Shown here: positions 39,286-62,250 of the stretch, piece after piece
Layout: every line of letters begins with the position of its first letter
Numbering within the stretch: the stretch's first letter is position 1
Assembly: GCA_963719225.1 (NCBI GenBank)
Contig: CAVRAY010000001.1
Span: forward strand, 3,456,001-3,520,000
Direction of reading: 5' to 3'
DNA: 64,000 bases
Origin: Thermoanaerobaculia bacterium
GTDB lineage: Bacteria > Acidobacteriota > Thermoanaerobaculia > UBA5066
Notes under the pieces: generated by a model
Databases searched by the model: none
What the model was told of the DNA's origin: nothing
Seen by the model: the letters and a program-made list of their open reading frames with translations, nothing else
Position numbers and translations under genes: made by a program

Positions 39286-39373
39286 GACAAGACGGCTCGC
39301 TATCCACCACGCGGTGCGCTTGCGCTGGTGGGAGAACAGATATCAGGAAACTAGCCCTGGTCGGGGTGAAGGT

Positions 39374-42300
39374 GTGACTATAAACACGGGCTTCCGCTTC
39401 CGTCAGCGGTCCTTCATAGCTGTCGCGAGGCGTCGCTGGGTTCTGTCTTTCGGTCTGGCGCCGGTCCTGCTACTAGCGACCCTTGCCCTGAACTGCTCTA
39501 CCGATCTGGCCCGGGTAAGGCCCTACAGCGATTTGTCCTTGAAGCCCGCCTCCCTTCACGAGGGGCACCAGCCCGCAGCTTCCGCCTCGGAGAAGAAAAT
39601 CGCCGTGACGCGAGTTCTCGAGCGGATGCCGATCTACTTCATCGAGAATCGCGGCCAGCTCGATTCACGGGTGGCCTACTACGTCCAGCGTGGGGACACG
39701 GCTCTGTACTTCACTGCCGACGGGATGACCCTCGTGCAAACCGACCAGAGGCATGGAGAAAACGGCCCGGAGGGCGGGCTGGAGAAGACATCGCTCGTTC
39801 GGAACGGCATGCCGACACCGGAGGCAGGGAGCCGATGGGCTGTCAAGCTCGATTTCGTTGGAGCAAACCCGAGCCCCAGTATCCAAGCAAAGGATCCAAC
39901 ACCCGCCATCGTCAGCTACTTCAAGGGCCCGAAGGAGAACTGGAAGGCGGCCCTCTCAACGTATGGCTCGATCATCTACTCCGATCTCTGGCCGGGAATT
40001 GATCTGGTCTATTCCGGAACGGCCAACCGCCTCAAGTACACCTTCCTTGTGAAGCCTGGGGCAGATTCGGCGCAGGTTAGGCTGGCGTATCGAGGCGTCC
40101 ATGGGATCCGGTTGAACGAAGCCGGGCAGCTAGAAATCGAGACACCTGCGGGACGTCTCCAGGACGACAAGCCGTATGCGTTTCAGGAGATCGATGGGCG
40201 CCGCGTCCAAATTGACGCGGCATATTCGCTCGATCCGTTGGGAGCCGCAGCGTCATACCGATATGGATTCGCAATCGGGTCCTATGACCGCGCTAAGCCT
40301 CTGGTGCTCGACCCGACAGTGCTCGTTTATTGCGGGTACATTGGTGGTAGCGGTTTCGATCAAGGCCGCAGTATCGCGGTGGACACTTCGGGCAACGCCT
40401 ATGTCACGGGACGAACCGGCTCCTCCGAGCCCACGTTCCCCGTGACCGTCGGGCCGGACCTGACCTACAACGGCGGCGGCGTAAACGGCAACACTGATGC
40501 CTTCGTGGCGAAGGTCAACGCCGCCGGCACCGCCCTCGTCTACTGTGGCTACATCGGCGGCGGCGACTATGATGAAGGCTACGGCATCGCGGTGGATAGC
40601 TCGGGCAACGCCTATGTCACGGGAGTAACCTCCTCGACCGAGGCCACGTTTCCCGTGACCGTCGGGCCGGGCCTGACCTTCGGCGGCGGCACCTATGACG
40701 CTTTCGTGGCGAAGGTCAACGCCGCCGGCACCGCCCTCGTCTACTGCGGCTACATCGGCGGCAGCGGAGGCGAGCAAGGTAACGGCATCGCGGTGGACAG
40801 CTCGGGCAACGCCTATGTCACGGGGCAAACCAGCTCCGCCGAGGACACGTTCCCAGTGACTGTGGGGCCCGACCTTACCTTCAACGGGCCCTTCGGCGGC
40901 GGTTCGGACGCCTTCGTAGCGAAAGTCAACGCCGCCGGCACCGCGCTCGTCTACTGCGGCTACATCGGCGGCGGCTATGCGGATGCTGGCTACGGTATCG
41001 CGGTGGACAGTTCGGACAACGCTTATCTCACGGGATTGACCCAATCGCCCGAGACCTTTCCCGGCCTATTCCCCGTAACCGTGGGGCCGGCCCTGACCTA
41101 CAGCGGCGGCGAGGATGCCTTCGTAGCGAAGGTCAACGCCGCCGGCACCGCCCTCGTCTACTGCGGCTATATCGGCGGCACGGGCTTGGATCAAGGCACG
41201 GGAATCGCGGTGGGCTCTTCAGGCAACGCCTATGTCATTGGGACCACTTCCTCCACCGAGACAACATTCCCCGTGACCGTCGGACCCAACCCGACGTACA
41301 ACGGCGGCCCCCATGACACTTTCCTAGCAAAGGTCAACGCAGCCGGCACCGCGCTCGATTACTGCGGTTACATCGGCGGCAGCGGCAACGATTTTGGCCG
41401 GGGTATCGCGGTTGACAGTTTGGGTAACGCCTATGCCACGGGGGAAACCACCTCCACCGAGGCCACGTTCCCAGTAATGGTCGGGCCGGACCTAACCTTC
41501 AATGGCCCTCTCGGCGGATCCAACGCCTTCGTCGCAAAGGTCAACGCCGCCGGCACTACGTTGGTGTACTGCGGCTATATCGGCGGCAGCAAAGGTGGCG
41601 AGAGTGGCCAGGGCATCGCGGTGGACAGTTCGGGCAATGCATATGTCACGGGATCCGCCGATTCCGATGAGACAACGTTCCCGGTGACCGCCGGACCAGA
41701 CCTGACCTTTGACGGCGGCAGCGACGCCTTCGTTGCGAAAATCGGGACCAGCTGTTTGCCTCGGGCCGGTCCTTTGGCATCGAACAACGGCCCGATCTGC
41801 GCAGGTCACACGCTGCAGCTTGCGGCGTCGCCAATTTCGGGGGCGACATATAACTGGACGGGGCCAAACAGCTTCACTTCGAACCTTCAGAACCCGACGA
41901 TTCTGGCCGCCACGTCGGCCGCGGCCGGAACTTACAGCGTCACGGCGACAGTCGGCGGCTGCACGTCGCCGGCCGGGACGACTGCGGCCGTCGTCAACCC
42001 GACCCCGGCTACTCCGGTCATCACGGCGCCAGCGAACACGGCCGGGGGGACGAGAGGTTTGTCAGCGTCGGTGGTTCCACACGCGGGGGGCAGCTGGTTC
42101 TGGACGGTCCAGAACGGCACCGTCACGGCGGGGCAGGGGACGAGCCAGATTACCTTCACCGCGGGGAGCATCCCCGAACCACTGACTCTCTCGGTCATGG
42201 ACACGAATGCCTCAGGATGTGTGAGCGCACCGGGAATCGCCTCCGTTGCGATTGATCCGTTCGGACCGCCGTACCTCTTCTACACGGTAACGCCGTGTCG

Positions 42301-42646
42301 AGTCCTTGACACCAGAAATCCGGCCGGTCCACTGGGCGGCCCGGCATTGCAGGCCGGCGCGATGCGGACGTTCGACGTGGCAACGTCCCGATGTGGTATC
42401 CCGTCCGGGGCGGTCGCAATCTCGGCGAACCTGACCGTCACGAATGTAGGTTCTCTCGGTGAACTCTTGGCCTTCGCGTCGGACGCGGCGCCGACAAACG
42501 CGAGCAGCCTCAGCTTCCGGCCGGGGCGCACCCGCGCTAACAACGCTATGGTTTCTCTCTCGAAATCGAGTGCGACGTTCTCCATCTTCAACAACTCCGC
42601 GTCCACTGTAGATTTCATCCTCGATGTGAACGGGTACTTCCAGTAG
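39374..42646 (+). CDS. Large surface protein: FIENRGQ domain, 7 SBBP repeats, Ig/PKD-like domains, conserved C-terminal PCR..DTR..DVNGYFQ domain
   Basis: Paralog of 34980-38525 over the N-terminal domain and propeller; YNWTGPNSF Ig-like domain; NGTVTAGQGT; start uncertain. Confidence 0.85.
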   Translation: MTINTGFRFRQRSFIAVARRRWVLSFGLAPVLLLATLALNCSTDLARVRPYSDLSLKPASLHEGHQPAASASEKKIAVTRVLERMPIYFIENRGQLDSRVAYYVQRGDTALYFTADGMTLVQTDQRHGENGPEGGLEKTSLVRNGMPTPEAGSRWAVKLDFVGANPSPSIQAKDPTPAIVSYFKGPKENWKAALSTYGSIIYSDLWPGIDLVYSGTANRLKYTFLVKPGADSAQVRLAYRGVHGIRLNEAGQLEIETPAGRLQDDKPYAFQEIDGRRVQIDAAYSLDPLGAAASYRYGFAIGSYDRAKPLVLDPTVLVYCGYIGGSGFDQGRSIAVDTSGNAYVTGRTGSSEPTFPVTVGPDLTYNGGGVNGNTDAFVAKVNAAGTALVYCGYIGGGDYDEGYGIAVDSSGNAYVTGVTSSTEATFPVTVGPGLTFGGGTYDAFVAKVNAAGTALVYCGYIGGSGGEQGNGIAVDSSGNAYVTGQTSSAEDTFPVTVGPDLTFNGPFGGGSDAFVAKVNAAGTALVYCGYIGGGYADAGYGIAVDSSDNAYLTGLTQSPETFPGLFPVTVGPALTYSGGEDAFVAKVNAAGTALVYCGYIGGTGLDQGTGIAVGSSGNAYVIGTTSSTETTFPVTVGPNPTYNGGPHDTFLAKVNAAGTALDYCGYIGGSGNDFGRGIAVDSLGNAYATGETTSTEATFPVMVGPDLTFNGPLGGSNAFVAKVNAAGTTLVYCGYIGGSKGGESGQGIAVDSSGNAYVTGSADSDETTFPVTAGPDLTFDGGSDAFVAKIGTSCLPRAGPLASNNGPICAGHTLQLAASPISGATYNWTGPNSFTSNLQNPTILAATSAAAGTYSVTATVGGCTSPAGTTAAVVNPTPATPVITAPANTAGGTRGLSASVVPHAGGSWFWTVQNGTVTAGQGTSQITFTAGSIPEPLTLSVMDTNASGCVSAPGIASVAIDPFGPPYLFYTVTPCRVLDTRNPAGPLGGPALQAGAMRTFDVATSRCGIPSGAVAISANLTVTNVGSLGELLAFASDAAPTNASSLSFRPGRTRANNAMVSLSKSSATFSIFNNSASTVDFILDVNGYFQ
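40320..41745 (+). repeat. Intragenic tandem repeats (~7 x ~200 bp; SBBP blades)
   Basis: Near-identical aaggtcaacgccgccggcaccgccctcgtctactgcggctacatcggcggc units; boundaries approximate. Confidence 0.85.
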
Positions 42647-42707
42647 GAGGCCATTCAGCATACCTGCGCGCACTCTGTGCCCTGAGGCATCCGCTATCCT
42701 CCTGCCC

Positions 42708-44585
42708 ATGCGAATCCTCGCCGGCGTCGCGCTCGGCGCGGTTCTCTTTTCGGGGCCGCTTTCCGGGCAGGACCTGTCGTCCGAGGAACCGGCCCCTCCT
42801 CACGTCAAGCAGGAGGTGGCGGTCGTCGCGACGCGCCTCGACATGGCGCCCGTCTCCGCCACGGTCCGCGTGGTCACGCGGGAGGAAATCGCCGCGATGC
42901 CGGGAGTCCGCGCGCTTTCCGACGTGCTCCAGACCGTACTCGGGCTCGACGTGAGAAGGCGCGGCGCGAACGGAACGCAGGCCGACATCGGGATTCGCGG
43001 CTCGGATTTCAACGGCGCGCTGCTCCTGGTGGACGGCCAGCCCATGACGGATCCCCAGAGCGGCCACCTCTCGGCGGACTTCGACGTCCCCCTCGGAGCC
43101 ATCGAGCGGATCGAGGTCCTGGCGGGGGGCGGCTCGGCGCTGTGGGGCTCGAACGCGATCGGCGGCGTCGTGAACATCGTGACGCGCGGCGCGGATCTCG
43201 GACGGTCGAACATGCAATGCGAGACGCGCTACTCGCACGGCAGCGACTCTCTCGACGCCGGCGGCTATCGCGCCGCGATGAAGATCGGAGAGTCCTTCTC
43301 GGCGGCGGTCGACTGGCAGCGGACCGAGAACGCGGGCTTCCGCGACGACACCGAGTCCGCGTCGGGCCTGCTGCGCGTCTCCGGGCGATGGGAGACGGAC
43401 GCAGGGCCCGTCACGCTCGGTCTCGGCTACGCGAACCGGAACTTCGGCGCTTACGCGTTCTACGGGACCGCGTTCCCGAACCAGCAGGAGTCGACGCGCA
43501 CGCGCACGGCCACGCTTTCCTCGACTCTCGCCCTCGGCGGCTGGACCGTGAGCCCCTCGGCTTCCGTGCGCGCGCATCACGACGACTTCGTCCTTGAACG
43601 CAGCAACCCCTCGTTCTACGAGAACCTTCACGACACGGTCAGCTCCGTGCTGCGCGCGGCGGCGCGACACGCGCTTCTCGAAGGGACGTTCGCGTTCGGG
43701 GCGGAGGCCGCACGCGAGACGATCTCCTCCACGAACCTCGGGAGCCACGGCCGCGATCACGGCGCGCTCTTCGCCGAGTTCGCGCGCGCCTGGATCCCCG
43801 GCTCCTCCTCGGCGGCGGGCTTGCGTGCGGGGCTGCGCGCCGATCTCTACGAAGGGTACGGGTCGCGGCTCTCCCCTTACGCGGGAGTCGCCTGGGACGC
43901 CGCCCGGAACCTCACCTTCCGGGCGTCGTTCGCGTCGAGCTTCCGCGTGCCGTCGTTCACGGAGCTCTACTACGTCGACCCGCAGAACATTGGCAACCCG
44001 AACCTGAGGCCCGAGAAGGCGTGGCAGGTCGAGGGCGGGGCGGTGCTCGCCGTGGGAGCCGCCACGCTCGATGCCGCGTACTTCCACCGGCGGGCGACCG
44101 ACCTGATCGACTTCGTCCGATCGTCCCCCGACGAGCCCTGGAGGTCGCGGAACGTGCGGGACGCCGTCGTTGACGGCATCGAGGCCTCGGCCGACTGGAC
44201 CCGGAGGCGGCCCGCGTTTCTGACCCAACTTCGTGTTCAGGCTGCGTACACGTTCGTCGATCTCGCGAGTCTCTCGGAGGCGGCCGACGGAGCGACACAG
44301 GGCAAGTACGTGCTCGACCCGCTCCATGCGAAATGGGACCTCCTCGCGGGCATCGCCCTGCCGCTCCGGATCTCCCTGGCCTCGCGCCTCTCTTACTTTT
44401 CACGGCCGAGCTTCGCCGACGGTGTCTGGCTCCTCTCCGCGCGCCTCTCGTGGCAGGCCTTCCAGGGGCGCATCCTCGAGTTCTTCGTGGACGGGGAGAA
44501 CCTCGGCAATGTCCGCTACGAAGAGGTCGCCTTCGTCCCCCTGCCGCGGCGCACGGTCGCCGGGGGGTTCAATCTGACCTGGTGA
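42708..44585 (+). CDS. TonB-dependent receptor (BtuB-like)
   Basis: IRGS..LLLVDG, IERIEVLAGGGSALWGSNAIGGVVNIVT, FRVPSFTELY, GNPNLRPE, terminal NLTW. Confidence 0.9.
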   Translation: MRILAGVALGAVLFSGPLSGQDLSSEEPAPPHVKQEVAVVATRLDMAPVSATVRVVTREEIAAMPGVRALSDVLQTVLGLDVRRRGANGTQADIGIRGSDFNGALLLVDGQPMTDPQSGHLSADFDVPLGAIERIEVLAGGGSALWGSNAIGGVVNIVTRGADLGRSNMQCETRYSHGSDSLDAGGYRAAMKIGESFSAAVDWQRTENAGFRDDTESASGLLRVSGRWETDAGPVTLGLGYANRNFGAYAFYGTAFPNQQESTRTRTATLSSTLALGGWTVSPSASVRAHHDDFVLERSNPSFYENLHDTVSSVLRAAARHALLEGTFAFGAEAARETISSTNLGSHGRDHGALFAEFARAWIPGSSSAAGLRAGLRADLYEGYGSRLSPYAGVAWDAARNLTFRASFASSFRVPSFTELYYVDPQNIGNPNLRPEKAWQVEGGAVLAVGAATLDAAYFHRRATDLIDFVRSSPDEPWRSRNVRDAVVDGIEASADWTRRRPAFLTQLRVQAAYTFVDLASLSEAADGATQGKYVLDPLHAKWDLLAGIALPLRISLASRLSYFSRPSFADGVWLLSARLSWQAFQGRILEFFVDGENLGNVRYEEVAFVPLPRRTVAGGFNLTW

Positions 44586-44628
44586 AAGCGAGTACACTCG
44601 CCAGCGAGACTCGCTCTCGAGTTCGCCC

Positions 44629-45312
44629 ATGCCGACCATTCTTCTTCTCGAGGGCGCGCGGAGGCGCCTGCCCGAGGGGCCGTCCTGGCTCCGGCGGAGC
44701 GACTGGAAGCTCATCGACGTCGCCACCGCGGAAGGCACCGTGCGCGCCGTCGCCGATCACCGCCCGTCCCTCCTGATCGTGGACCTCGAGCAGGATCCCG
44801 AAGGCGCTCTCGAGACCGTCCGCGCGGTTTGCGCCGACGCCGCCGCGCGCGCGGTCCCGCTCCTCGTCCTGGCGCCGGCGGAGCGCGCCGAAGCCGTCCG
44901 CGCCGCGGGAGCGGGCCACGTCTTTCCGGAAAGCGCACCCCCGGAAGAAGTGCTCGCCGAGGTCCGCCGTCTCCTCGCCCTTCTCGAGCGCCGGGCGCCG
45001 CGCGTGAAAGTCGAGGCGTCCGTCGCGATCTGGCGCGACGGGCATCCGACCGAGGGGCGCGTCACCGACATCTCCTCGTCGGGGTTCTTCACGGCGACGA
45101 GCGAGCCTCAACCGGTCGGCGCGCGCCTCGAGATCAGCTTCAAGCTCCCCCACGACCGGTCCGGCAAGACCGTGACGGGCGAGGTCATCGTCGTGCGGCG
45201 CGCCGAAGGGCCGGAGTCCGGGTTCGGTGCCCGTTTCTTCCGGCTGCCGCAGACCGCGAGCCAGCTCATCGACGACTACCTCGCACCGCGAACGAAACAG
45301 TCGAAGATCTAG
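44629..45312 (+). CDS. Receiver-like + PilZ domain protein
   Basis: RRAPR and DISSSG PilZ motifs; N-terminal degenerate receiver fold. Confidence 0.8.
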   Translation: MPTILLLEGARRRLPEGPSWLRRSDWKLIDVATAEGTVRAVADHRPSLLIVDLEQDPEGALETVRAVCADAAARAVPLLVLAPAERAEAVRAAGAGHVFPESAPPEEVLAEVRRLLALLERRAPRVKVEASVAIWRDGHPTEGRVTDISSSGFFTATSEPQPVGARLEISFKLPHDRSGKTVTGEVIVVRRAEGPESGFGARFFRLPQTASQLIDDYLAPRTKQSKI

Positions 45313-45755
45313 AGCGGACGCGCCGGCGGGACGGCCGACAGGTCGACGAGGCGGATGCCGACGCGGTCGGCGTAATCGTGGATGCGCGGCTCCCTATAGA
45401 ACTCGCCGAAGTAAACGGCGACGAGCCCCGCGTTCGCGATGAGCTTGAAGCAGTGCCAGCAGGGCGAGGCCGTCGTGTAGATCTCGCCACCCTCGATGCG
45501 GACACCGTTCATCGCCGCCTGGAGGATCGCGTTCGCCTCGGCGTGGACGGTCGCGATGCAGTGCCCGTCCTCCATGAGGCAGCCCACCTCGTCGCAGTGC
45601 GGCAGGCCCCGAAGCGAGCCGTTGTACCCCGTCGACAGAAGCCTCTTGTCGCGCACGATCACCGCGCCGACGTGCTTGCGCGGGCACGTGGCCCGGCTCG
45701 CCACCTCTCCGGCGATGTTCATGAAGTAGCGGTGCCAATCGACGCGCTCCGTCAT
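45309..45755 (-). CDS. dCMP deaminase / ComEB-like cytidine deaminase
   Basis: WHRYFM..RATC..VGAVIV..TGYNG, HAEANA, PCWHC. Confidence 0.9.
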   Translation of the reverse strand: MTERVDWHRYFMNIAGEVASRATCPRKHVGAVIVRDKRLLSTGYNGSLRGLPHCDEVGCLMEDGHCIATVHAEANAILQAAMNGVRIEGGEIYTTASPCWHCFKLIANAGLVAVYFGEFYREPRIHDYADRVGIRLVDLSAVPPARPL

Positions 45756-45760
45756 GTCGC

Positions 45761-47570
45761 TCACCAGCCGACCGGCTTCCCCTTGTTCTGCTCGTCCAGC
45801 CACTTCTGAAGCGGGGCGAAGTAGTCGCGGATCGCGCCGGCGTCCATCTGCTTCTGTCCCGTCAGCGTCGCGAGGGCTTCGGGCCACGGGCGGCTCGTGC
45901 CCATCGACAGCATCGCGTTCAGGCGGCTTCCCGCCTCCTTGTTCCCGTAGATCGAGCAGCGGTTGAGCGGGCCCTTGCAGCCCGCGATCCCCGCGAGCGC
46001 GCGATGAAACTGGAACTGGAGGATGTCCGCCAGAAAGTAGCGCATGTAGGGCACGTTGCCGGCCACGTGGATACTTCGCGCCCGGGTCGAAATCCTCCTC
46101 GCTCCGCGCCACCGGCGGCGCGATTCCCTGATATTTCCGCCGCAGCTCCCACCACGCCTCGTTGTATTTCTCCGGCGGAATCTGCCCGGAGAAGACCTTC
46201 CAGCGCCACTGGTCGATCACGAGCCCGAACGGCAGGAACGCGATCTTCTCGAGCGCCCTGTCGAGAAGAAGACCGATGTCCTTCGACGCGTCCGGCGCCT
46301 TCTCGAGGAGGCCGAGCTTCACGAGGTATTCCGGCGTGACGGAGAGCGCGATCGTGTCGCCGACGGCCTCGTGGAAGCCGTCGTTGGCGCTGTCGCGGAA
46401 GAGGTACGGCTGCTCGTTGTACGCGCGCTGGTAAAAATTGTGGCCGAGCTCGTGATGGATCGTGCTGAAGTCCTCGGCCGTGGGCTCGATGCACATCTTG
46501 AGGCGCAGGTCGTTGAGGTAGTCGATGTCCCAGGCGCTCGCGTGACAGACGACCTCGCGGTCCCGCGGCTTCACGAAGAGCGACCGCTTCCAGAACGTCT
46601 CGGGCAGCGGCGCGAAGCCGAGAGACGTAAAGAACCCCTCGCCGTACTTCACCATCTGCTGGTCGTTCGTCTTGCGGCCCTTGAGGATCTGCGTCAGGTC
46701 GTATCCGGGGTCCGCGCCGGCCGGCGCCACGAGCGGGTAGATGTTTCCCCACTCCTGCGCCCACATGTTGCCGAGGAGATGCGCGGGGATCGGACCGCTC
46801 GCACTGACGCGATCGCCGTACTTCTCGCGCAGCTTCGCGCGAACGTAGGCATGGAGGGAGAGGTAGAGCGGCTTCACCTGCTCCCAGAGGCGGTCGAGCT
46901 CCGCCTCGAAGGCTTCCGGCGGCATGTCGTACTTGGACCGCCACATCGCGCCGGTGTCGGCGAAGCCCAGCTCTTTCGCGCCCTTGTTCGCGAGCGCGAC
47001 GTACGTGATGAAGTCCTTCCGCATGGGACGCGAGATGGAGTGCCAGCCCGTCCAGGCGTCGAGGAGCTCGTCGTAGTTGCGACTCGACGCGAGGACCTTC
47101 GAGAGGTCGCCGAGGTCGCGGCACTCCTCCTTCCCGTCCTTTCCCTTGCGGCAGGATTTCCCCTTGCCGTAGAGGCCCTCCATCCGGGAGGCGATGCGCG
47201 TCAGCTGCTCGCTCTCCTTCGGGTCCGAGGGCGTCGCGAGCGTGAGCCCGTTCTTCAGGAGCCGCATCTTGCGGGCGAGCGCTTCCGGCAGCGCCAGCTT
47301 GTCGAACCGCACGGACTGTTTCGCGAGCTCGACGGCCGCGTTGATCGCGCGCTCGTCGGCCTTCGCCGCGAGAAGCTCGGTGTCCTCGGTGATGAAGTTG
47401 ATCTTCACCCAGTCCGCGCGCCCCGCCTCGACGAAGAGCTGCAGCAGGCGCCCTTCGGCGTTCGCCAGGAACGTCTCCGCCTCGACCGCAGTCGGGGGCG
47501 GCGCGGGCTGGGCCGCGGCGGGAAAGACGACGGACGCGAGGAGCAGGACGAACGTGCGGAAGCGCTTCAT
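45761..47570 (-). pseudogene. M2-family peptidyl-dipeptidase (ACE-like) with a +1 frameshift at ~46070 (real lesion or sequencing error)
   Basis: HLLGNMWAQ, CHASAWD, HHELGH, GFHEAVG, FDPGAKY; continues in another frame as [24 protein letters not shown]. There is an extra C in AAG TAT C CAC GTG. Confidence 0.85.
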
Positions 47571-47617
47571 GACGCGATCGTAGCAAGCCCCCGCCGGGAC
47601 TCAGTAAGATGCGGCAA

Positions 47618-48841
47618 ATGGACAACCGCCGCGTCGTCGTGACGGGCCTCGGGGCCGTGACGTCTCTCGGGAACGACCTCGCGTCGACCTGGGACTCTCT
47701 CGTCGCCGGGCGCTGCGGCATCGGCCCCATCACGCTCTTCGATGCCTCGGCCTTCCGCACGCAGCTCGCGGCGGAGGTCAAGGAGCTGCCCGGGGGCTTC
47801 GACCCCGCGCTCCGGCGCCGCCTCTCCCGCACGGACGTCATCGGCCTCACGGCGGCGGCCGAAGCGCTCGCCGACGCCGGCCTCGATCTGGGCCGCGAGG
47901 ATCCATCGCGCATCGGGGTCGTCCTCGGCGGGGGCGTGTCCGGGCTTCTCGACAGCGAGAACTATTTCCGCGATCTCGTCACGCGGGGGCCCCGCCGGGC
48001 ACGTCCCACGCAGGTCCTCAATCACCCGCCCGACCAGACGACCGACCGCATCGCCGAGCGCTGGGGCTTCCTCGGCCCGCGCTCGACGATCACGACCGCG
48101 TGCTCGTCCTCGGCGACTTCGCTCGGCTATGCCGCCGACCTCATCCGCCACGGTTTCTGCGACGTCGTCGTGACGGGCGGCGCCGACACGTTCGCGAGAC
48201 TGACGCACGGCGGCTTCAACGCGCTTCGCTCCGTCGACCCCGATCCCTGCCGCCCGTTCGACAGGCGCCGCAAGGGGCTTTCGATCGGGGAGGCCGCGGG
48301 CCTTCTCGTCTTCGAGGAGGAAGGCCGCGCGCGCCGCCGGGGAGCGCGGATCCGCGCCCGCTTCCTCGGCTACGGCGTCACGTCCGACGCGCACCACATG
48401 ACGCAGCCCGAGCCGACGGGCGAAGCCGGCGCCCGAACGATCAGCGCGTGCCTCGTGGCCTCCTCCCTGAACCCGGGCGACGTGGACTACGTGAACGCCC
48501 ACGGAACCGCGACCCCGCAGAACGACTCGGCCGAGACGGCGTCGATCAAGCGGGCGCTCGGGCCGCGCGCGCGGGAGATCCCCGTCTCGTCGATCAAGTC
48601 GATGCTCGGCCACTGCCTCTGCTCGGCAGGGGCCATCGAGGCGGTCGCGACCGTCCGCACGATCGAGACCGGCCTCGTGCCGCCCACGATCCACTGGGAA
48701 GAGCCGGACCCCGAGTGCGACCTCGACATCGTCCCGAACACGGCCCGGGAAGCGCGCGTCAGGATCGCGCTCTCGAACTCCTTCGCGTTCGGCGGGAACT
48801 CGACGGTCGTGGCGTTCGGGCAGTTCGAAGGGAGGGTCTAG
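47618..48841 (+). CDS. fabF: Beta-ketoacyl-ACP synthase II-like ketosynthase
   Basis: VVVTGLG, TACSSS (catalytic Cys), DAHHMT, NAHGTAT, KSMLGH, SNSFAFGG. Confidence 0.85.
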   Translation: MDNRRVVVTGLGAVTSLGNDLASTWDSLVAGRCGIGPITLFDASAFRTQLAAEVKELPGGFDPALRRRLSRTDVIGLTAAAEALADAGLDLGREDPSRIGVVLGGGVSGLLDSENYFRDLVTRGPRRARPTQVLNHPPDQTTDRIAERWGFLGPRSTITTACSSSATSLGYAADLIRHGFCDVVVTGGADTFARLTHGGFNALRSVDPDPCRPFDRRRKGLSIGEAAGLLVFEEEGRARRRGARIRARFLGYGVTSDAHHMTQPEPTGEAGARTISACLVASSLNPGDVDYVNAHGTATPQNDSAETASIKRALGPRAREIPVSSIKSMLGHCLCSAGAIEAVATVRTIETGLVPPTIHWEEPDPECDLDIVPNTAREARVRIALSNSFAFGGNSTVVAFGQFEGRV

Positions 48842-48844
48842 GCC

Positions 48845-49285: not shown

Positions 49286-49397
49286 GGAAAACTCCTTTTC
49301 CGCTTTCGCGGGCCGCTTCAGATCGGGCCACCATGTCGCGGCAGAGACCCAGTGTCAACACCGAAAACGATGCCACCGCCCGTGTACGATCCTGTGA

Positions 49398-50965: not shown

Positions 50966-50968
50966 GCT

Positions 50969-52351: not shown

Positions 52352-52392
52352 GACCGGAGTGTATCGGGACTCCGGTCGTGCCGATGCCGCGA

Positions 52393-53562
52393 CTACTGGA
52401 AGAAGCCGTTCACGTCCAGGATCACGTCCACCATTCCCGGCGCGGTGTTCTGGATCCGGATCGTGCCCGAGCCGTCCGTCGCGAGGCGGATCAGCGCATT
52501 GTTGGCGCGCGTCTGGAAGGCGCCGAAGCTGACCGTCGAGGCATTCGTGGGCATGCCGTCCCCCGGGTACGCCAGGAGCGTGCCCGCCGCGAAAGCGTTC
52601 GTCGCCGTCATGTTCACGGAGATCGAGGTGGCGTCCGCCGGGATGCCGCAGGTGCCGGCGACCGTGAACGTACGATCCAGGACGCCTGCCGGCGCGAGTG
52701 AGGGACCGCCGAGGGGCCCGACCGGCCCGCGCGTATCGATGAGGCGGCAGCCCGCCACCGTGTAGAAGAGCACGGCGCTTCCCGAAGGCGCGACCGTCAC
52801 GAGCGCGCTCCCGTGAGACGAGTAGCAGGCCGGCGGATTGGAGACGGTGACCCCGAGGTCGAGGACGCCCGGAGCCCCCGCGGTGAAGGTGATCTGTGAG
52901 GTGCCCTGGCCGGCGGTGATCGTCCCGTTCGCGATCGTCCACGTGATGACGGAGCCGAAGCCGAACAGCAGGCTCGCCGTACGGTTCGGCGAGAAGGCCC
53001 CTACGATCTCCGGCGCGACGATCAGGATCGGCGGGGGCGGCGGCGGGGGCAGGAAGAGGATGTTCACGCTCGCGCTCGCCGTGTTGTTGCTCGCGTCGGG
53101 GTCCATGGGAGAGGCTGCCGCGACGCTCGCCGTGTTCACGATCGTCCCGGGCGACGTCGAGCATTTGACGTCTGCATCGAGCGCGATGGTCGCCGTTGCG
53201 CCCGAAGCGAGGCTCGGGAACGAGATCGTGCGCGCGTTGCCCGCGCCGCCACAGACGCCTCCCCCCGAGGCCGAGCACGAGCTGAAGGCGACCTCGGGAG
53301 GGAGGTTGTCGGTCACGACGACGCTCGCCGCGTCGTCCGGGCCGAGGTTCGTGACCGTCAGCGAGAAGGAAATCGTGGAGCCGATGAACGCGTTCGCCGG
53401 CGCCGTCATGGTCAAGGCGAGGTCGGCCGAGGGAAGCGTCGGAGGGGAGGCGGCAATGGCCGCGGGTTCGCCGAGCCACCCGAAAAGGTCAGCGAAGAGG
53501 ATGGCCGATAGGACGAAGAGGAACCTGTGCGCCCCCGCCCGGAGTTCCGGAGAAGTCGGCAT
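52393..53562 (-). CDS. Secreted DUF11-like domain protein with PKD-like and conserved C-terminal CR..DTR..DVNGFFQ domain
   Basis: GGAGG RBS; ADLALT..TVTNLGPDDA..VVTDNLP..DPDASNNTA; poly-Pro linker; NGTITAGQGT. Confidence 0.85.
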   Translation of the reverse strand: MPTSPELRAGAHRFLFVLSAILFADLFGWLGEPAAIAASPPTLPSADLALTMTAPANAFIGSTISFSLTVTNLGPDDAASVVVTDNLPPEVAFSSCSASGGGVCGGAGNARTISFPSLASGATATIALDADVKCSTSPGTIVNTASVAAASPMDPDASNNTASASVNILFLPPPPPPPILIVAPEIVGAFSPNRTASLLFGFGSVITWTIANGTITAGQGTSQITFTAGAPGVLDLGVTVSNPPACYSSHGSALVTVAPSGSAVLFYTVAGCRLIDTRGPVGPLGGPSLAPAGVLDRTFTVAGTCGIPADATSISVNMTATNAFAAGTLLAYPGDGMPTNASTVSFGAFQTRANNALIRLATDGSGTIRIQNTAPGMVDVILDVNGFFQ

Positions 53563-53615
53563 GGGACCTCCGGAATGTAATGTCCGGTTTTTCGCCGACC
53601 TAACAGACTGTCGGG

Positions 53616-55532: not shown

Positions 55533-55688
55533 GGAACGGATCCTCCGCCACTGGGAGACAGTTTCCTGTACAGACACCAGCCTATCACGGCTTGGGGGCT
55601 GTCCGCGCCTCGTCAACACAAATTGAACGAACGAGAGGGTCGGCCCGCAAGGCGCTTAGAATTCCAGGCGGAGGGCTGAGCGCCGCAC

Positions 55689-56675
55689 ATGCCTGTTTCA
55701 CCGCTCGATGGCCCGCCCTTCCGCGGCCGCCACGTCGCCTCGCTGACCCGGATCGTCGACACCGTCCGCTCGGTCCTCGACCCGGACTCGGTCGAGCTGG
55801 AATACCTGTTCGAGCCCTCCGGCCAGCGCTTCCGCTGGCGGGCCCGGCGCAGCCGCGTCTTCACCGCCGGGACGGTCCGCGTGGCCACCCGGCACGCGGC
55901 GACGGCGGAGTCCCTCGCCATCGAGTTCCATCTGACCGGCCTCCTTCGCGGGACCTTCACGCTGCATCGGCGGCCCCGCAGGCCGTGGACGCAGCCCGAG
56001 GTGTTGCGCTTCGAGGTCTTCCGGCCGCTGCTCGCCCAGCTTCTCGAGAGCGCGGCGGCCGCCGACATCCACGCGGCGGCCCGTCGGCGGCTGGAGAGCG
56101 CGGCCGAAGCCGCGTCCACGCCGATCCTTCTCGTCGGGCCGTCCGGCTCGGTCCTCTACGCGAACCGCGCCGCGGCGGCCTTCCTTTCCGCGCGGATCCC
56201 GCTCGTCGTCATTCCGGGCGACGGCCGCGAGACCTCGCTCGCGACCTGGATCGCGCGGCTCGGGGCCGGCGCAGCCGCGGGCGAAAAGAGATGCGCCGTT
56301 CTCGCGGATGGACGCGCGCTCGAAGCTTCCGTCGCGCGCTTCGCCGACGAGGAGGAGGACGACGTCGCCGTCCTCACGCTGAAGGTCCAGTCGGCTTTTT
56401 CCCTCGAGGACGTGCGCGAGCGGCTCGCGACGCGGGGCGTTTCCGGCCGCGAAGCCGACGTCGTGGGCGCCGTCCTCGAAGGACTCCGCAATGCGGAGAT
56501 CGCGCGCCGGCTCTTCATCACGGAGTGGACCGTCAAGGATCACCTCAAACACGTCTTTTCGAAGCTCGGCGTTGGCTCGCGCTCGGGCCTCCTGAAGGCG
56601 CTCGACGCGGCTCCCCGATCCGACGCAAAACCCCAGCCGGTTGAGTCTCAGGGTCGGCGGCACCTCAAAATGTAG
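55689..56675 (+). CDS. LuxR-family regulator with PAS-like middle domain
   Basis: ILLVGPSGSVLYANRAA; C-terminal SGREADV..GLRNAEIARRLFITEWTVKDHLKHVFSKLGV. Confidence 0.8.
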   Translation: MPVSPLDGPPFRGRHVASLTRIVDTVRSVLDPDSVELEYLFEPSGQRFRWRARRSRVFTAGTVRVATRHAATAESLAIEFHLTGLLRGTFTLHRRPRRPWTQPEVLRFEVFRPLLAQLLESAAAADIHAAARRRLESAAEAASTPILLVGPSGSVLYANRAAAAFLSARIPLVVIPGDGRETSLATWIARLGAGAAAGEKRCAVLADGRALEASVARFADEEEDDVAVLTLKVQSAFSLEDVRERLATRGVSGREADVVGAVLEGLRNAEIARRLFITEWTVKDHLKHVFSKLGVGSRSGLLKALDAAPRSDAKPQPVESQGRRHLKM

Positions 56676-56694
56676 TGGTAGGCTCTCTGCGCTG

Positions 56695-59600
56695 ATGTTC
56701 CGACTGAAGAGACTCGAGATCCAGGGTTTCAAATCCTTCGTGGACCGGACCTCCGTCACGCTTCCGTCGCGCATCACGGCGATCGTCGGCCCGAACGGCT
56801 CCGGCAAGTCCAACATCTGCGACGCCGTGCAGTGGGTGCTCGGCGAGCAGTCGGCCAAGAGCCTGCGCGGGACGACGATGGAGGACGTCATCTTCAACGG
56901 GGCCGCGCGCCGGCGGCCGCTCGGGATGGCGGAGGTCGCCCTCACGCTCGAGTCGCGCGGCGGCGACCAGTGGGCCGAGACGGGCGGCGAGGTCGTCATC
57001 ACGCGGCGCGTCACGCGCGACGGCGAGAGCGACTACATCCTCAACGGAAAGAGGTCGCGCCTCAAGGACGTCCAGGAGATCCTCCTCGGCACCGGCCTCG
57101 GCGTGCGCGCGTACTCGATCATCGAGCAGCAGAAGATCGACCTGATCCTCTCGACGAAGCCGCAGGATCGCCGCCGCCTCATCGAGGAGGCCGCCGGCGT
57201 CTCGAAATACAAGATCCGCAAGCGTCAGGCCGAGGTGAAGCTCGAGGAGACGCGCGGGAACGTCCTGCGTCTCACCGACATCGTGTCGGAGATCGACCGC
57301 ACGTGCGCTTCGCTGAAGCGGCAGGCCTCGCGCGCCGCGCGCTGGAGAGAGCAGGCCGAGCTCCTCTCGGGGCAGAAGAAGAAGCTCGCGCGTCTGCGCG
57401 CCGACCGCCTGGGGGCGGGCTTCGCGGGCGGTCGGGCGGCCCTCGAGAGCGCGACGGACGCCGAGGCCGCGGCGCTTGCGGACCTCGCCCGCCTCGAAGC
57501 GGAGGTCGTGGAAGCGCGCCGCCTCGCCGACGAGGACGAACGTTCCATGCGCGAGGCGGGAGACGCGCTCTCCCGCGCGAGAGAGACTCTCCTCGCCGCC
57601 GAGGCCGCCGTCCAGGCCGCCGCCCGCGAGGCCGAGGAGGCCGCCGCGCGAAAAGAGCTCCTGGAGGCGCAGCGCCGGGAGTCCGAATCCGATCACAGCC
57701 GCTTCGTCGAGGAGGCCGGCCGCACGGTGAAGGCCCGGGACGAGGCGGAGTCGGCTCTCTCGGAGGCCGCCGCAGCCGCCGCCGCGGCCGCCCAGGCGCT
57801 GGCCGAAGTCTCGGCCCGCGAGGCCGACGTCACGGCGCGACGCGAGACTTCGCGACGCGACCTCCTCTCCGCGGGGGCTCGGGCGGCCGAGGCGACGAAC
57901 CGGGAGCGCGACGCCGCCCTCCTCGTCGACCGCCTCGGTTTCGCGCTCGCGAAGCTCGAGGAGAGAAAGGTGCGGGCGGAATCGCTGGTGGACGAGCGGC
58001 GGACGGCCTCCGCCGAGGCCGGAGCGCTTCTGGCCTCGGCTTCTTCCGGTCTCGACGCGGCGCGCCAGAATCTCGAAAAAGCGAGCCACGGCCGCCGCGC
58101 CGCCGAGGACCGCCTCACGACCCTCAAGGCCGTCCGCGAGGCCCACGTCGCCGCCCTCCATGCGGTGGACGTGCGCGCCGCCGCCCTCGAGACCACCCTT
58201 GCCGCACGCGAAGGCGGAGGCGAGTCCGCGCGCCGCGCGCTCGAGGCGGCGAACGTCGCGCCGAAGGGCGTCCTCGCAGACCACTTCGACGCGGCGGCCG
58301 GTTTCGAAAAAGCCCTGGACGCCGCTCTCGGGGCCGCTCTCGAGGCGCCGGTCCTCGAGACGCGCTCCGCTCTCGACGCCGCGCTCGCCTCCGTGCGCGA
58401 GAAAAAGCTCGGCGCGGCGCGCTTCGTCCACCCTCTGCCCGAGACGCCGTTTCCGCTGAAGCCGAAGGACCCCCGAGTCCTCGCGATCGCGCGCGAGCTC
58501 CTCACCGCGAAGTCGGCGTCGGCGCCGGCTTCCGCCCTGCCCGACGCGGTCGTCGTCGCGAACGTGGACGACGCTCTCGCGCTCGCGGCGCTCCATCCCG
58601 AACGCACGCTCGTGACGAAGGACGGTGTCGTCGTGCGGGGCGCGGTGGTCGAGGCCGCCGGCACCGAAGTTCCCGGAGAGGGTCTCTTCACGGTCCGGCG
58701 CGATCTCGTGAATCTCGCCGCGGAACGGAAAGGCGTCGCGGCGAATTTGGCGGAGGCGGATGCCGAGATCGCCTCCCTGTCCGCACAGGTCGGAACTTTC
58801 GCGGCGACGCTCGACGCCGCGCTCGCCGCCAAAGGGGCCGCCGAGCGCGCGCATTCCGAAGCCGAGGCGAGGAGCGCGGCCGCTCGCACCGAGGAAGAGC
58901 GCGCCGTCGAGGAGCTGCGGGTCCTCGCGGAGGAGGGCGACGCTCTTCGCCAGGATCTCGCGAAGGCTGCCGAAAGCCGGACGGAGGCGGCGCGCCTCGC
59001 GGCCCAGCGGCAATCCGAGATGGCGACCGTGGAACGCACGCTCTCGGAGCTGGAGGCGGCGCTCGATGCCGCGCGCTCTCTGCGCCTCACGGCTGCGGAG
59101 GCCGACGCCGTCGCGCGCAACGGACGCGACATCCTCGTCGAGCGCTCCCGGTCCCTCGCCGCCGCCTCCACGTCGGCCGAGGAGCGCGCCCGCGACGCGG
59201 CGCGCCGTGTCGCGGACCTGGCGGACGCCCTCGTCGAGATCGAGGCTCGGCGCGCCGGGGCTCTCGCCTCCGGAGAGGCAGCGAAGGCGGCGCAGGGCGC
59301 GGCCGCGACCGCCGCCGCCGAGGCCGACCGGCTGCGCGCCGGAACGGACGAGGCGGCGACGACACGGCGCGAGGCGCGCGCCGACGCCGAGGCGCGGGCG
59401 GCCGGCCAGCGCGAGGCCCTCGACGCCGTGCGGCGGACGCGCTTCGAGGCCGAGATCGCCCTCGAGCGCCACAAGGCCGACCAGGACCACCTCGTCGAGA
59501 CGTGCCGGACCGAGTTCGGCTGCCTTCCCGGCGAGCTGCCGGCCTTCGAGATGACCGACGAGGAGGCCGCTCTCCCGTCCGAGGAGCTCGAAGCCGCGCT

Positions 59601-60234
59601 CTCCGAGGACGTCGTCTCCCGTTCCCTGGCCCTCGAGCGGCTCGGCCCCGTCAACCACGCGGCTCTCAAGGAGTACGAAGTCGAGAGCAAAAGGCTCCAG
59701 GAGCTCTCGGCGCAGAAGGCCGATCTCGACGCGTCGCTCGCGCAGATCCTCGAGACGATCCGGACGATCAACACGACCTCGTCCGAGCGCTTCCAGGAAG
59801 CGTTCGCGGCCATCAACTTCAGCTTCGGCCAGGTCTTCCAGCGCCTCTTCCACGGCGGCACCGCCTCGATGCATCTGCTCGACGAGGGGGACCCGCTGGA
59901 TTCCGGCCTCGAGATCATGGCGCAGCCGCCCGGCAAGCGGAACCAGACGATCGGGCTCCTCTCGGGCGGCGAGAAGGCGCTCACGGCCATCGCGCTCCTC
60001 GTCGCGATCTTCAAGTACAAGCCGTCGCCGTTCTGCATCCTCGACGAGGTCGACGCCCCGCTCGACGAGGCGAACATCGACCGCTTCACGTCGCTCCTCG
60101 TGGAGCTCTCCGAGGAGACGCAGTTCGTCCTCATCACGCACAACAAGAGGACGATGGAAACCGCGCAGGCGCTCTACGGCGTCACGCAGGAGGAGCCGGG
60201 GGTATCGAAGCTCGTCAGCGTGAGATTCGACTGA
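56695..60234 (+). CDS. smc: Chromosome segregation protein SMC
   Basis: GFKSF, GPNGSGKSN, coiled coils with hinge, LSGGEK, LDEVDAPLD, ITH. Confidence 0.97.
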   Translation: MFRLKRLEIQGFKSFVDRTSVTLPSRITAIVGPNGSGKSNICDAVQWVLGEQSAKSLRGTTMEDVIFNGAARRRPLGMAEVALTLESRGGDQWAETGGEVVITRRVTRDGESDYILNGKRSRLKDVQEILLGTGLGVRAYSIIEQQKIDLILSTKPQDRRRLIEEAAGVSKYKIRKRQAEVKLEETRGNVLRLTDIVSEIDRTCASLKRQASRAARWREQAELLSGQKKKLARLRADRLGAGFAGGRAALESATDAEAAALADLARLEAEVVEARRLADEDERSMREAGDALSRARETLLAAEAAVQAAAREAEEAAARKELLEAQRRESESDHSRFVEEAGRTVKARDEAESALSEAAAAAAAAAQALAEVSAREADVTARRETSRRDLLSAGARAAEATNRERDAALLVDRLGFALAKLEERKVRAESLVDERRTASAEAGALLASASSGLDAARQNLEKASHGRRAAEDRLTTLKAVREAHVAALHAVDVRAAALETTLAAREGGGESARRALEAANVAPKGVLADHFDAAAGFEKALDAALGAALEAPVLETRSALDAALASVREKKLGAARFVHPLPETPFPLKPKDPRVLAIARELLTAKSASAPASALPDAVVVANVDDALALAALHPERTLVTKDGVVVRGAVVEAAGTEVPGEGLFTVRRDLVNLAAERKGVAANLAEADAEIASLSAQVGTFAATLDAALAAKGAAERAHSEAEARSAAARTEEERAVEELRVLAEEGDALRQDLAKAAESRTEAARLAAQRQSEMATVERTLSELEAALDAARSLRLTAAEADAVARNGRDILVERSRSLAAASTSAEERARDAARRVADLADALVEIEARRAGALASGEAAKAAQGAAATAAAEADRLRAGTDEAATTRREARADAEARAAGQREALDAVRRTRFEAEIALERHKADQDHLVETCRTEFGCLPGELPAFEMTDEEAALPSEELEAALSEDVVSRSLALERLGPVNHAALKEYEVESKRLQELSAQKADLDASLAQILETIRTINTTSSERFQEAFAAINFSFGQVFQRLFHGGTASMHLLDEGDPLDSGLEIMAQPPGKRNQTIGLLSGGEKALTAIALLVAIFKYKPSPFCILDEVDAPLDEANIDRFTSLLVELSEETQFVLITHNKRTMETAQALYGVTQEEPGVSKLVSVRFD

Positions 60235-60286
60235 CGCCGAGCGCCCACAAGGGTTCTCCTCGTTGTCGCGGTGGTAACGTGTCACC

Positions 60287-60481
60287 GTGAAGGTCGTCCC
60301 ACTCGCCCGCGTGCCGAAGGACCAGCGCTGGTTCTATCACCCTGAGATGCAGGCTCGGATTGCTCAGGCTGAACGGAATTTCGCCGAAGGACGTTCGACG
60401 ACAACGAAGACCCTTGAAGAAGCCCGCGCTTTTCTCGATCGCCTCAAGAAGCGACGGGCGGGCGGCAGCAACCTTCGCTGA
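60287..60481 (+). CDS. Short protein resembling the C-terminal half of AbrB/MazE-type antitoxins (possible remnant)
   Basis: VPKDQRWFYHPEMQARIAQAERNFAEGR resembles the DQAWFW..WQ..EA..D..AGR pattern; an in-frame stop lies just upstream (60275). Confidence 0.5.
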   Translation: MKVVPLARVPKDQRWFYHPEMQARIAQAERNFAEGRSTTTKTLEEARAFLDRLKKRRAGGSNLR

Positions 60482-60498
60482 CGGCGACTCGGCTCGGG

Positions 60499-62250
60499 CT
60501 ACTCGAAGAACCCCACGACGTCCACGATCACGTGAACCCCGCCAGCGGGTGCGACCGTCTCGAACCGGACCGTGAACTCCGCGTCCGGGCCCAGCGCGAT
60601 CGTCGCGTTGTTCGCGCGCGTCTGCCCTGCGCGGAAATTGATGACCGTCGCGTCCGGCGCTCCGATGTCCGAGGCATGGATGCGCAGGAGTCCGTTCGAA
60701 GTCGCGTCCGAGACGGTCACGTTCGCGGCAATCGCGCGGGCGGTCGCCGGGATCCCGCAAACGTCCCCAACTGGAAAAAGGCGAGGCGCGTTGGCCACGA
60801 GGGCGGGCCCTCCGAGGAAGCTGGTTGACGCGCGCGTGTCAATGACGCGGCACGGATTGAGCAACGAAAGCGAGGCCGGACGAACAGGCGCGGCGAACGA
60901 GGAGCCGTTCATCGCCCAGAGCTCCGTCCCTGCCGACGGGTCCTTGCCCGCGAAAAGCGTAACGCCGCGATAAGGGAATCCCGGGCCGCTCGCGCCGATG
61001 TCCTGCTGGACGGGAACCGTACCCGATGCCGTCCCGTCGCTCGTCCAGAGGCTCGTCGAGAAGGGAGATGTGTCCTGTGCTATCGAGGCGAGAAGCCGGC
61101 CGTTCGCGACCGTGAGCGACGCGATCGTCGCGTCTTCGCCACCTGTCTTGAAATCATGGAGAAGGACCGTCCCAGGGACGCTGCCGTCGGTGATCCACAG
61201 TTGCTGGGTAGCGCCCACGATGCCGCTGGTCTGGATCGTGAAATAGACGCCCTCCCGCGTTCCCACGCCGGCAGCCAGCGCGGCGACCGAAAACGATTTG
61301 AGAAGAAACGTGCCCGCAACCGTGCCGTCGGTCCGCCACAGGTCCTTCGCATTCGCGAAAAAGAGCACTCCTCCCGCCGAGCCCAGGAACGTCCCTCCAT
61401 CCACGACACCGATGGGCACCGTACCCGCGGCTGTCCCGTCGCTTCGCCAGACATTGCACCCCTTCGAGGCGTCGTCGGCGAGGAACACGAAGATCCTTCC
61501 GAGGCGGCGGGGCGTCGTCCAGCAGGAAACCGGGCCGCTCGACGACAGCGTCTTCAAGGGACCCGTCCCCGAGGCGGTCCCGTCACTGAACCACAGCTCC
61601 GAGATGCCGGCCAGAGACCTCTCGAGGAACGCGACGCCGCTGTTGAAGGCGAGAAGCGGTCCCAATCCATATAAGTCGAAACCTCCAGCGGTGAGCGGAC
61701 GCGTTCCCAGCGCGCTGCCGTCCGTGCGCCACAGCAGGGTCACGCCGGACTGGGATCCGAAGAAGAACACCTGCTCCGCGCTTGCGACGAGGGACCCTCC
61801 GAACGAAATCGGGACGAGGTCAGGCGGCAACGACACTGGAGCCGTGCCGGCCTGCATCCCGTCGCTCGCGAAGAGCTTTGACGCCGCCGGGCACAGTCCG
61901 CAAGGGCCGGCGGGGCCCGGTAAGACCGTACCCTCGAGCCAGAACAGCTTCCGGCTCGTCGCCACCAATAAGGAGAGCGCGCCTTCGGTCGTCTGGAAGA
62001 CGCGCGTGGTTCCGGCCTGCGTTCCGTCGGTTCGCCACACATCGGCGGGGACGTTCATTGCGCCCCTCGGGAACGCGAAGAAGTACGCGCTCCCAAAGAG
62101 CTCCTGAAAGCCGCTCGGGTACGAGCCGGAGGGCCCGGCGCTGATATCCACGAGCCGAGTCGCCGGCTGCGCGGTCGCGCTCGCGGCCAGGAAGAGTGCG
62201 AGGCAGAGAGTCAGGACCGCAAGGTAGTCGCTGCTTACGTTTCGGAACAC
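60499..62250 (-). CDS. Secreted ELWxxDGT-repeat protein with conserved C-terminal PCR..DTR..DVVGFFE domain
   Basis: Signal peptide; repeated (L/V)W(R/F/I/T)(T/S)DG(T/S)xxGT; CGIP..RANNA tail. Confidence 0.85.
   Translation of the reverse strand: MFRNVSSDYLAVLTLCLALFLAASATAQPATRLVDISAGPSGSYPSGFQELFGSAYFFAFPRGAMNVPADVWRTDGTQAGTTRVFQTTEGALSLLVATSRKLFWLEGTVLPGPAGPCGLCPAASKLFASDGMQAGTAPVSLPPDLVPISFGGSLVASAEQVFFFGSQSGVTLLWRTDGSALGTRPLTAGGFDLYGLGPLLAFNSGVAFLERSLAGISELWFSDGTASGTGPLKTLSSSGPVSCWTTPRRLGRIFVFLADDASKGCNVWRSDGTAAGTVPIGVVDGGTFLGSAGGVLFFANAKDLWRTDGTVAGTFLLKSFSVAALAAGVGTREGVYFTIQTSGIVGATQQLWITDGSVPGTVLLHDFKTGGEDATIASLTVANGRLLASIAQDTSPFSTSLWTSDGTASGTVPVQQDIGASGPGFPYRGVTLFAGKDPSAGTELWAMNGSSFAAPVRPASLSLLNPCRVIDTRASTSFLGGPALVANAPRLFPVGDVCGIPATARAIAANVTVSDATSNGLLRIHASDIGAPDATVINFRAGQTRANNATIALGPDAEFTVRFETVAPAGGVHVIVDVVGFFE

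Follow-up and report, generated by a model that had tools for sequence, protein, structure and literature searches.

Why should secreted proteins with different passengers end in the same domain? The question is raised by a stretch of 64,000 nucleotides (hereafter the window) from a Thermoanaerobaculia bacterium of the Acidobacteriota (assembly GCA_963719225.1, contig CAVRAY010000001.1, positions 3,456,001 to 3,520,000), in which three open reading frames (ORFs) close on a common domain of 123 amino acids (aa), each with its stop codon directly after the domain. An earlier reading of the letters alone (the sequence-only reading) had proposed a candidate sorting or surface-anchoring module. We argue here that the domain is probably a trimeric, non-covalent anchor to an envelope glycan, analogous to SLH and CWB2, and not a secretion tag; the binding of a glycan, the nature of the ligand and the compartment, periplasm or outer surface, are the parts of this proposal that we infer.

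The three window copies are 45–55% identical over approximately 120–126 aa (BLASTP, E 1e-22 to 4e-37), whereas the best match among the reversed ORFs of the genome, used as decoys, reached E 0.31; chance or an artefact is thereby ruled out as the origin of their likeness. The motifs CRxxDTR, LGGP, CGIP, TRANNA and DVxGY/FF, as well as both cysteines, are invariant across the copies, as the sequence-only reading had noticed, and Pfam and NCBIfam confirm that the passengers differ (DUF7948 with an SBBP propeller, DUF11 and ELWxxDGT repeats, respectively), the Ig-like domain common to the first two proteins being matched by Pfam PKD_6. The N-terminal signal claimed for all three is of the ordinary Sec type in proteins 2 and 3; protein 1 displays a hydrophobic stretch, and its start codon is uncertain (all signals were assessed by inspection and hydropathy rather than with SignalP). 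Pfam and NCBIfam cover the passengers and hold no model for the 123-aa domain. PDB sequence searches and a search of annotated phage genomes with it likewise gave no match, an ESM Atlas search returned only unnamed clusters at 0.97 (named clusters reached at most 0.81), and literature searches, whose coverage left most subscription journals outside, found no description of it. That no characterised family can be named thus still holds across Pfam, NCBIfam, PDB sequences and the ESM Atlas.

The count per genome proposed at that stage was made with a profile hidden Markov model of the three window copies. It gave 35 frame matches in the source genome (G000), i.e. 32 copies once three frameshift-split pairs were merged, and from 0 to 76 copies in relatives. 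Among the 32, 28 are C-terminal on a cargo, two are N-terminal (one before DUF1800, one before a collagen stalk) and two stand alone, with a signal and the domain; this is the use at either terminus of diverse secreted proteins seen in SLH- and CWB2-like anchors. A signal-like hydrophobic stretch lies in frame with 27 of the copies, the remaining five being frameshift-split, and the cargos include metallopeptidases, Vgb-type, FG-GAP and PD40 propellers, beta-helices and BACON repeats. Approximately five copies are probably double-counted, because one region, with smpB and lpxC in it, is present twice on contig C2 in different versions. Indeed, divergent versions of an lpxC–smpB–cargo cluster–glycan locus (L016/L064 and L018/L065, at approx. 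4–31 kb and 773–805 kb of C2) lie on that one contig, and this duplication, together with the many frameshifts genome-wide, suggests strain mixing or assembly error. Elsewhere (L001:2563-3282, minus strand), the N-terminal part of a 239-aa ORF, a signal with a short fragment resembling a peptidase, leads into a 5'-truncated domain copy, possibly through a deletion or a misassembly.

Beyond the source genome, the family comprises 36,472 clusters at 50% identity (matches at E 0.001 or better), distributed over Acidobacteriota and Actinomycetota; close homologues that carry names belong to Thermoanaerobaculia, Holophagales and Acidobacteriota. The supposed lineage expansion is real but not lineage-specific; the domain also occurs in Streptomyces, Arthrobacter and Terriglobia. 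(A scan of the phylum scored 16 candidates per genome and was positive in only 10 of 251 genomes, and was for that reason not used for the range.) Tandem arrays were counted in the best 150 of the 36,472 representatives, ranked by summed score: near-full copies number three in 129, six in 13 and nine in one, and three further representatives reach six or nine with one partial copy, so that 146 of the 150 hold three, six or nine. A second set consisted of 116 triples and four sextuples (120 of 120). Proteins with one or two copies are hidden by a ranking on summed score, but arrays of four or five would be placed above triples, which makes their rarity informative. Linkers inside the arrays are mostly 4–9 aa long. 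Triples are present in named Bryobacterales and other Terriglobia, and the three examined of 19 records from Streptomyces and Arthrobacter plasmids are all triples, without the cysteine pair. Among the same best 150, the array is C-terminal in 138, N-terminal in eight and internal in four; with these N-terminal and internal arrays and the actinomycete carriers, the family is neither strictly C-terminal nor confined to diderms, and the strict C-terminal placement first described is a property of the window and not of the family. Seven of 12 N-terminal examples stand before collagen or S74 fibres, which are obligate trimers. In these fibre-type proteins, a short conserved Trp-x-Ala-Pro-Pro-Tyr-Trp-like motif precedes the domain, after the signal peptide (table 1).

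These distributions bear on the idea of an export or sorting signal, read by a hypothetical outer-membrane machine and possibly cleaved. The C-terminal domain (CTD, PF18962) of the type IX secretion system (T9SS) and PEP-CTERM are indeed appended C-terminally to many unrelated secreted proteins, 28 of the 32 copies in the source genome sit at the exact C-terminus of their cargo, and, with LpxC detected in 16 of 16 genomes tested, export of the cargos might have to include passage across an outer membrane. We nonetheless hold this explanation to be very improbable, and the sorting half of the original proposal is not supported: the domain is also used in N-terminal, internal, stand-alone and tandem-triple forms, some carriers are monoderm, no transmembrane helix or basic tail follows it, and a weak exosortase-like gene and two secretins were present in all five domain-rich genomes and equally in all five SLH-rich ones. 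Membership of the known systems was rejected as well. The domain has no match to Por_Secre_tail or any other Pfam or NCBIfam model and, unlike the T9SS CTD, is not restricted in position; it ends in a beta strand (DVxGYF-x-stop) and not in the short motif, transmembrane helix and basic tail of an exosortase target. A search for PorP/SprF was negative in five of five genomes, the control genomes giving no match either.

What, then, is the structure of the domain? AlphaFold2 models copy 1 as an eight-stranded beta-sandwich, or jelly roll (pLDDT 96), whose closest fold among 48,161 chains is the C-terminal tip of the Bdellovibrio MAT fibre Bd2133 (PDB 8ok3, 8ond; Z 9.9, root-mean-square deviation (r.m.s.d.) 2.8, 107 of 121 residues aligned, 11% identity), the next-ranked match reaching Z 7.4. 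The tip topped the search with both models (single domain, Z 9.9; triple, Z 8.8). The Foldseek check against the PDB that had been recommended also placed it first, at E 1.1e-3, with nothing at E 0.001 or better. At the level of sequence, two profiles gave no match to the tip at E 10, identity being 7–11%. A homotrimer of window domain 1 is predicted with a score of 0.77, against 0.00 for the best of three controls, the runs having at least 78% of contacts in common and a pLDDT of at least 87; in a calibration that fits only roughly, 20 of 30 solved pairs scored at or above the threshold, as did one of 23 single chains. The predicted interface contains the conserved R11, N54, T56, T88–N92 and D119 (copy 1 numbering), and both termini of the modelled trimer lie at one pole, an arrangement compatible with short linkers and with extension of the chain in either direction. 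The model of a natural triple had a pTM of 0.89 and aligned to a single-chain C1q head at Z 7.4 (r.m.s.d. 5.0, 207 residues, i.e. two domains), while neither C1q nor TNF was among the top 50 matches of the single domain. Heads of the C1q/TNF type are likewise jelly-roll trimers capping collagen; however, the Z is middling and the present domain precedes the collagen. The array counts, the homotrimer score and the triple model thus predict a three-fold arrangement such as that of SLH- and CWB2-like anchors.

The same fold could be taken to indicate a lectin or adhesin that faces outwards and recognises an external glycan, a substrate or a prey surface, as a carbohydrate-binding module (CBM) or the Bd2133 tip might. 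CBM35, CBM36, CBM6, CBM16 and phage fibre proteins are among the neighbours of the jelly roll, the viral matches including tail fibres, and PMC10769870 describes the tip as a trimeric sandwich of a kind not characterised before, in which the interface between subunits forms a pocket. We find this unlikely, since the CBM36/35/6 matches reach at most Z 7.4, within background, and no Pfam CBM match was obtained; the cargos are proteases, propellers and DUF1800 proteins rather than mainly glycoside hydrolases; on fibres the domain occupies the N-terminal, proximal end; and it trades places with SLH, as set out below. The Bd2133 tip shares the topology and the trimeric state but differs in being a distal tip on one fibre, not a mobile module on thousands of proteins, and its ligand is not established either.

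Relatives of the source genome, which itself has no SLH match, tend to hold either the domain or SLH. Among 40 relatives (a count that leaves out G025 and with which the class-wide draw below overlaps), 27 have at least five domain matches and nine at least five SLH matches; none has both and four have neither. The class-wide draw of 121 genomes contains 24 domain-rich and 25 SLH-rich ones, a single genome being both where five were expected. For the 30 genomes of the order in this draw, the figures are 14 with the domain only, 12 with SLH only, one with both and three with neither (13, 12, 1 and 3 without G025). Match counts are lower bounds and kin are not independent, and we therefore relied on repeated contrasts between sisters: within one genus, G029 has 76 domain and no SLH matches and G039 has two and 98; within a second, G366 has 14 and none and G328 none and at least 53. 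The contrast recurs within three families (f1, f2 and f3).

The exchange extends to individual proteins. Six cargo families bear the domain in one lineage and SLH in another, in the same slot, once at the N-terminus. The 25 loci of an unnamed secreted cargo divide into six with the domain, four with SLH, 14 with another tail and one unassigned. Vgb propellers bear SLH at six of 12 loci, the SBBP family, to which window cargo 1 belongs, at its one locus (in a protein 33% identical to window cargo 1), and metallopeptidase and GSDH cargos also swap the domain for SLH. DUF1800 proteins have the domain at their N-terminus in the source genome and SLH there at five of seven loci according to Pfam, and at a sixth by eye. 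With the near exclusion and the three-fold architecture, these swaps lend good support to the surface-anchoring, SLH-like half of the sequence-only reading. Two observations accompany them. The uncharacterised DUF1800–DUF1501 pair at L013:981-4396 (minus strand), whose DUF1800 bears the domain here and SLH in relatives, is thereby implied to work tethered to the envelope; and the unnamed cargo ends, in different genomes of the class, in at least six types of tail (L093–L112), among them short Arg-rich tails, basic tails rich in Pro and two other modules that lack annotation.

A candidate for the ligand emerges from gene order. A conserved core cluster, in which a stand-alone copy comes after peptidase, unnamed and FG-GAP cargos, adjoins, in the source genome and its genus mates, genes for PMT_2-like GT-C, GT2 and GT4 glycosyltransferases (GTs), an epimerase, a methyltransferase and an ABC-2 (ATP-binding cassette, ABC) transporter. 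It adjoins GT genes in G036 also, and in G283, of another family, a stand-alone copy by itself adjoins such a glycan locus. Overall, the core cluster lies beside a GT/ABC-2 locus in three families, with most examples in one genus. The ABC pair appears to be of Wzm/Wzt type, judging from Pfam ABC2_membrane/ABC_tran and the context, and the glycan made by this locus is the likely ligand candidate; as LpxC was found in every genome tested, either an O-antigen or a wall polymer of the periplasm is conceivable. A locus and cargos of this kind are also present in G040, but there the cargos bear SLH and a pyruvyl transferase–GT fusion lies alongside. Pyruvyl transferase at 90 bits or more was detected in eight of nine SLH-rich versus one of 27 domain-rich genomes, and the cluster-adjacent GT-C in 18 of 45 genomes, none of them SLH-rich. 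As a separate observation, very large genes (1200–1900 aa) opening with a pyruvyl transferase domain occur in SLH-rich genomes (table 1), the two scanned being fused to GT4, GT2 and methyltransferase domains.

Stand-alone copies follow directly downstream of a cargo copy at 19 of 25 loci (hand count, mostly one genus); the pairing is also seen by coordinates in G366, G298, G352 and G320, and the only two domain copies of G039 form one such pair. They constitute a sequence group of their own, although the split between cargo, stand-alone and tandem types is weakly supported in the tree (FastTree, 126 columns, 45 random C-terminal-locus rows and the three window copies, with frameshifted and misclassed rows dropped), which was not used for direction or origin. 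This suggests that stand-alone copies are putative filler subunits completing trimers in trans. In SLH-rich genomes, arrays of small secreted proteins, each with an unannotated domain of approximately 150 aa and a single SLH motif, lie beside a pyruvyl transferase gene (L146:1-5444 in G040, L148:1187-8909 in G039); they may form S-layer-like trimers and could be the SLH-side equivalents of the stand-alone copies.

Would oligomerisation suffice? A module that acts between proteins only, trimerising cargos and plugging them into a lattice or scaffold of stand-alone copies, with no glycan binding, would agree with the predicted trimer, with the N-terminal copies at the head of collagen and S74 fibres, with the collagen-type nature of both copies kept in the SLH-rich G031, and with the distinct sequence and regular position of the stand-alone copies. 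It seems rather unlikely to us, because single-chain triples, the commonest multi-copy form, complete their trimer internally, so that the assembled trimer must do something else, and because pure oligomerisation leaves the SLH exchange and the synteny with the glycan locus unexplained.

We thus favour the envelope-glycan anchor, which might operate as follows. Cargos would be exported by Sec, in keeping with the signals seen, and three domains would pack round a three-fold axis, supplied by one chain where the domain forms a tandem triple (Terriglobia, Actinomycetota) and by three chains where it is single, as in this lineage. The conserved polar residues at the subunit interface could then grip a glycan, presumably the cell's own envelope sugar polymer and likely the product of the GT and Wzm/Wzt-type locus near the core cluster, the domain doing the job that SLH does in sister lineages.

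Several results weigh against this interpretation. On the structural side, the high trimer score may owe something to resemblance with the Bd2133 trimer, whose structure is solved, the Bd2133 domain is a distal tip and not an anchor, and four of the best 150 arrays depart from three-fold (three with five copies, one with four). As to the exclusion, G356 uses both modules (20 and 9), many genomes of the class have neither, and genome counts are not phylogenetically independent. Cargos do not all swap: in G029 and G039, the unnamed secreted cargo bears neither module; ELWxxDGT proteins occur in four of 21 SLH-rich genomes, and the three that could be assessed all end in short Pro/basic tails, not in SLH; at the cut-offs used, FG-GAP, reprolysin and ELWxxDGT queries found no match in five SLH-rich genomes. 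With class genomes lacking either module and orthologues bearing other tails, the exclusion shows that the two are alternatives, not that their ligands are identical. The glycan locus, finally, is absent from three of the 12 regions outside the source genome (G039, G029 and the second G013 region), and most copies, the three of the window included, lie away from it; the GT-C was found in only 18 of the 45 genomes and not in several domain-rich ones; and at the Pfam curated cut-off, pyruvyl transferase is present in eight of nine SLH-rich and nine of 27 domain-rich genomes.

Like SLH (PF00395), the anchor we propose is predicted to be three-fold, is placed at one or other end of numerous secreted proteins, occupies the same slot on homologous cargos and has an apparent link to a glycan locus. 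It is not a member of that family: no copy has a PF00395 match, and the model is an all-beta jelly roll of 123 aa, whereas SLH is a helical repeat of 44 aa. According to the review PMC8559796, three tandem SLH domains bind pyruvylated polymers non-covalently; here, the domain is usually present once per chain in this lineage, and a strong pyruvyl transferase is mostly missing from domain genomes, in distinction to the SLH/CsaB system. The same review describes CWB2 of Clostridioides difficile, a three-repeat alternative that binds PS-II and is found in some lineages in place of SLH. The present domain similarly stands in the place of SLH, but is unrelated to CWB2 in fold and sequence, occurs in lipopolysaccharide (LPS) diderms and Actinomycetota, and has a ligand proposed from context.

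Two further genes of the window deserve mention. A paralogue of cargo 1 without the domain (DUF7948, SBBP and Vgb propeller; 34854-38525, plus strand) has a long, Pro/Thr-rich tail with a basic tip, a candidate alternative tail type. At 45309-47570 (minus strand) lies what we take, from its motifs, to be an ACE/M2-type peptidase-like frame, seemingly frameshifted into a downstream deaminase-like gene.

Table 1. Coordinates of the domain-bearing proteins of the window and of loci mentioned as side observations.
Feature	Position	Strand	Description or basis
Cargo 1	39314..42646	+	1110 aa; DUF7948, SBBP propeller, PKD-like Ig domains, C-terminal putative anchor domain; true start possibly further in
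Hydrophobic signal or signal-anchor-like stretch, cargo 1	39437..39496	+	Sequence, hydropathy
PKD_6-like Ig domain (NGTVTAGQGTSQITFTAG) preceding putative anchor domain, cargo 1	42014..42226	+	Pfam PF19408, E 1.5e-5
Putative anchor domain, copy 1	42269..42646	+	Cys at 42296 and 42392; sequence used in the fold and trimer predictions
Cargo 2	52393..53562	-	389 aa; signal, DUF11, PKD-like Ig, putative anchor domain
PKD_6-like stretch (NGTITAGQGTSQITFTAG), cargo 2	52813..52944	-	PF19408 E 0.003, below cut-off; motif same as in cargo 1
Putative anchor domain, copy 2	52393..52773	-	Profile/alignment of the three copies
Cargo 3	60499..62250	-	583 aa; signal, ELWxxDGT repeats, putative anchor domain
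Putative anchor domain, copy 3	60499..60876	-	Profile/alignment of the three copies
Loci with Trp-x-Ala-Pro-Pro-Tyr-Trp-like motif	L011:3890-4312, L041, L043, L044, L069, L070, L073
Large pyruvyl transferase genes	L145:13659-19253, L147-L148, L149:11655-15512, L150:13008-16607, L151:8100-13289

The near mutual exclusion with SLH across relatives is new here, and it concerns a family of more than 36,000 sequence clusters without a Pfam model. The review PMC8559796 lists three triple-repeat, mainly helical anchors (SLH, CWB2 and a Geobacillus type) and states that Gram-negative bacteria have no widespread anchoring domain. A broader proposal, which we offer as tentative and rather doubtful, is that an all-beta three-fold envelope anchor might constitute a fourth widespread class, the first to be all-beta and usable in LPS diderms; single-domain cargos would be completed in trans as mixed trimers with stand-alone fillers or with one another, so that enzymes and fibres would be displayed in varying combinations on a surface glycan exported by an ABC transporter, and lineages would switch wholesale between this system and SLH/CsaB. 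The anchoring role itself is directly testable, as the domain is of only 13 kDa and Streptomyces or Arthrobacter carriers are culturable, and the sister genomes amount to a natural experiment in wholesale anchor switching. If the domain is indeed an SLH-equivalent anchor, it would identify the proteins of the surface or envelope in major uncultured Acidobacteriota of soils and in many Actinomycetota, and would indicate where the genes for its ligand may lie; it may also hint at the ligand of the Bd2133 tip fold.

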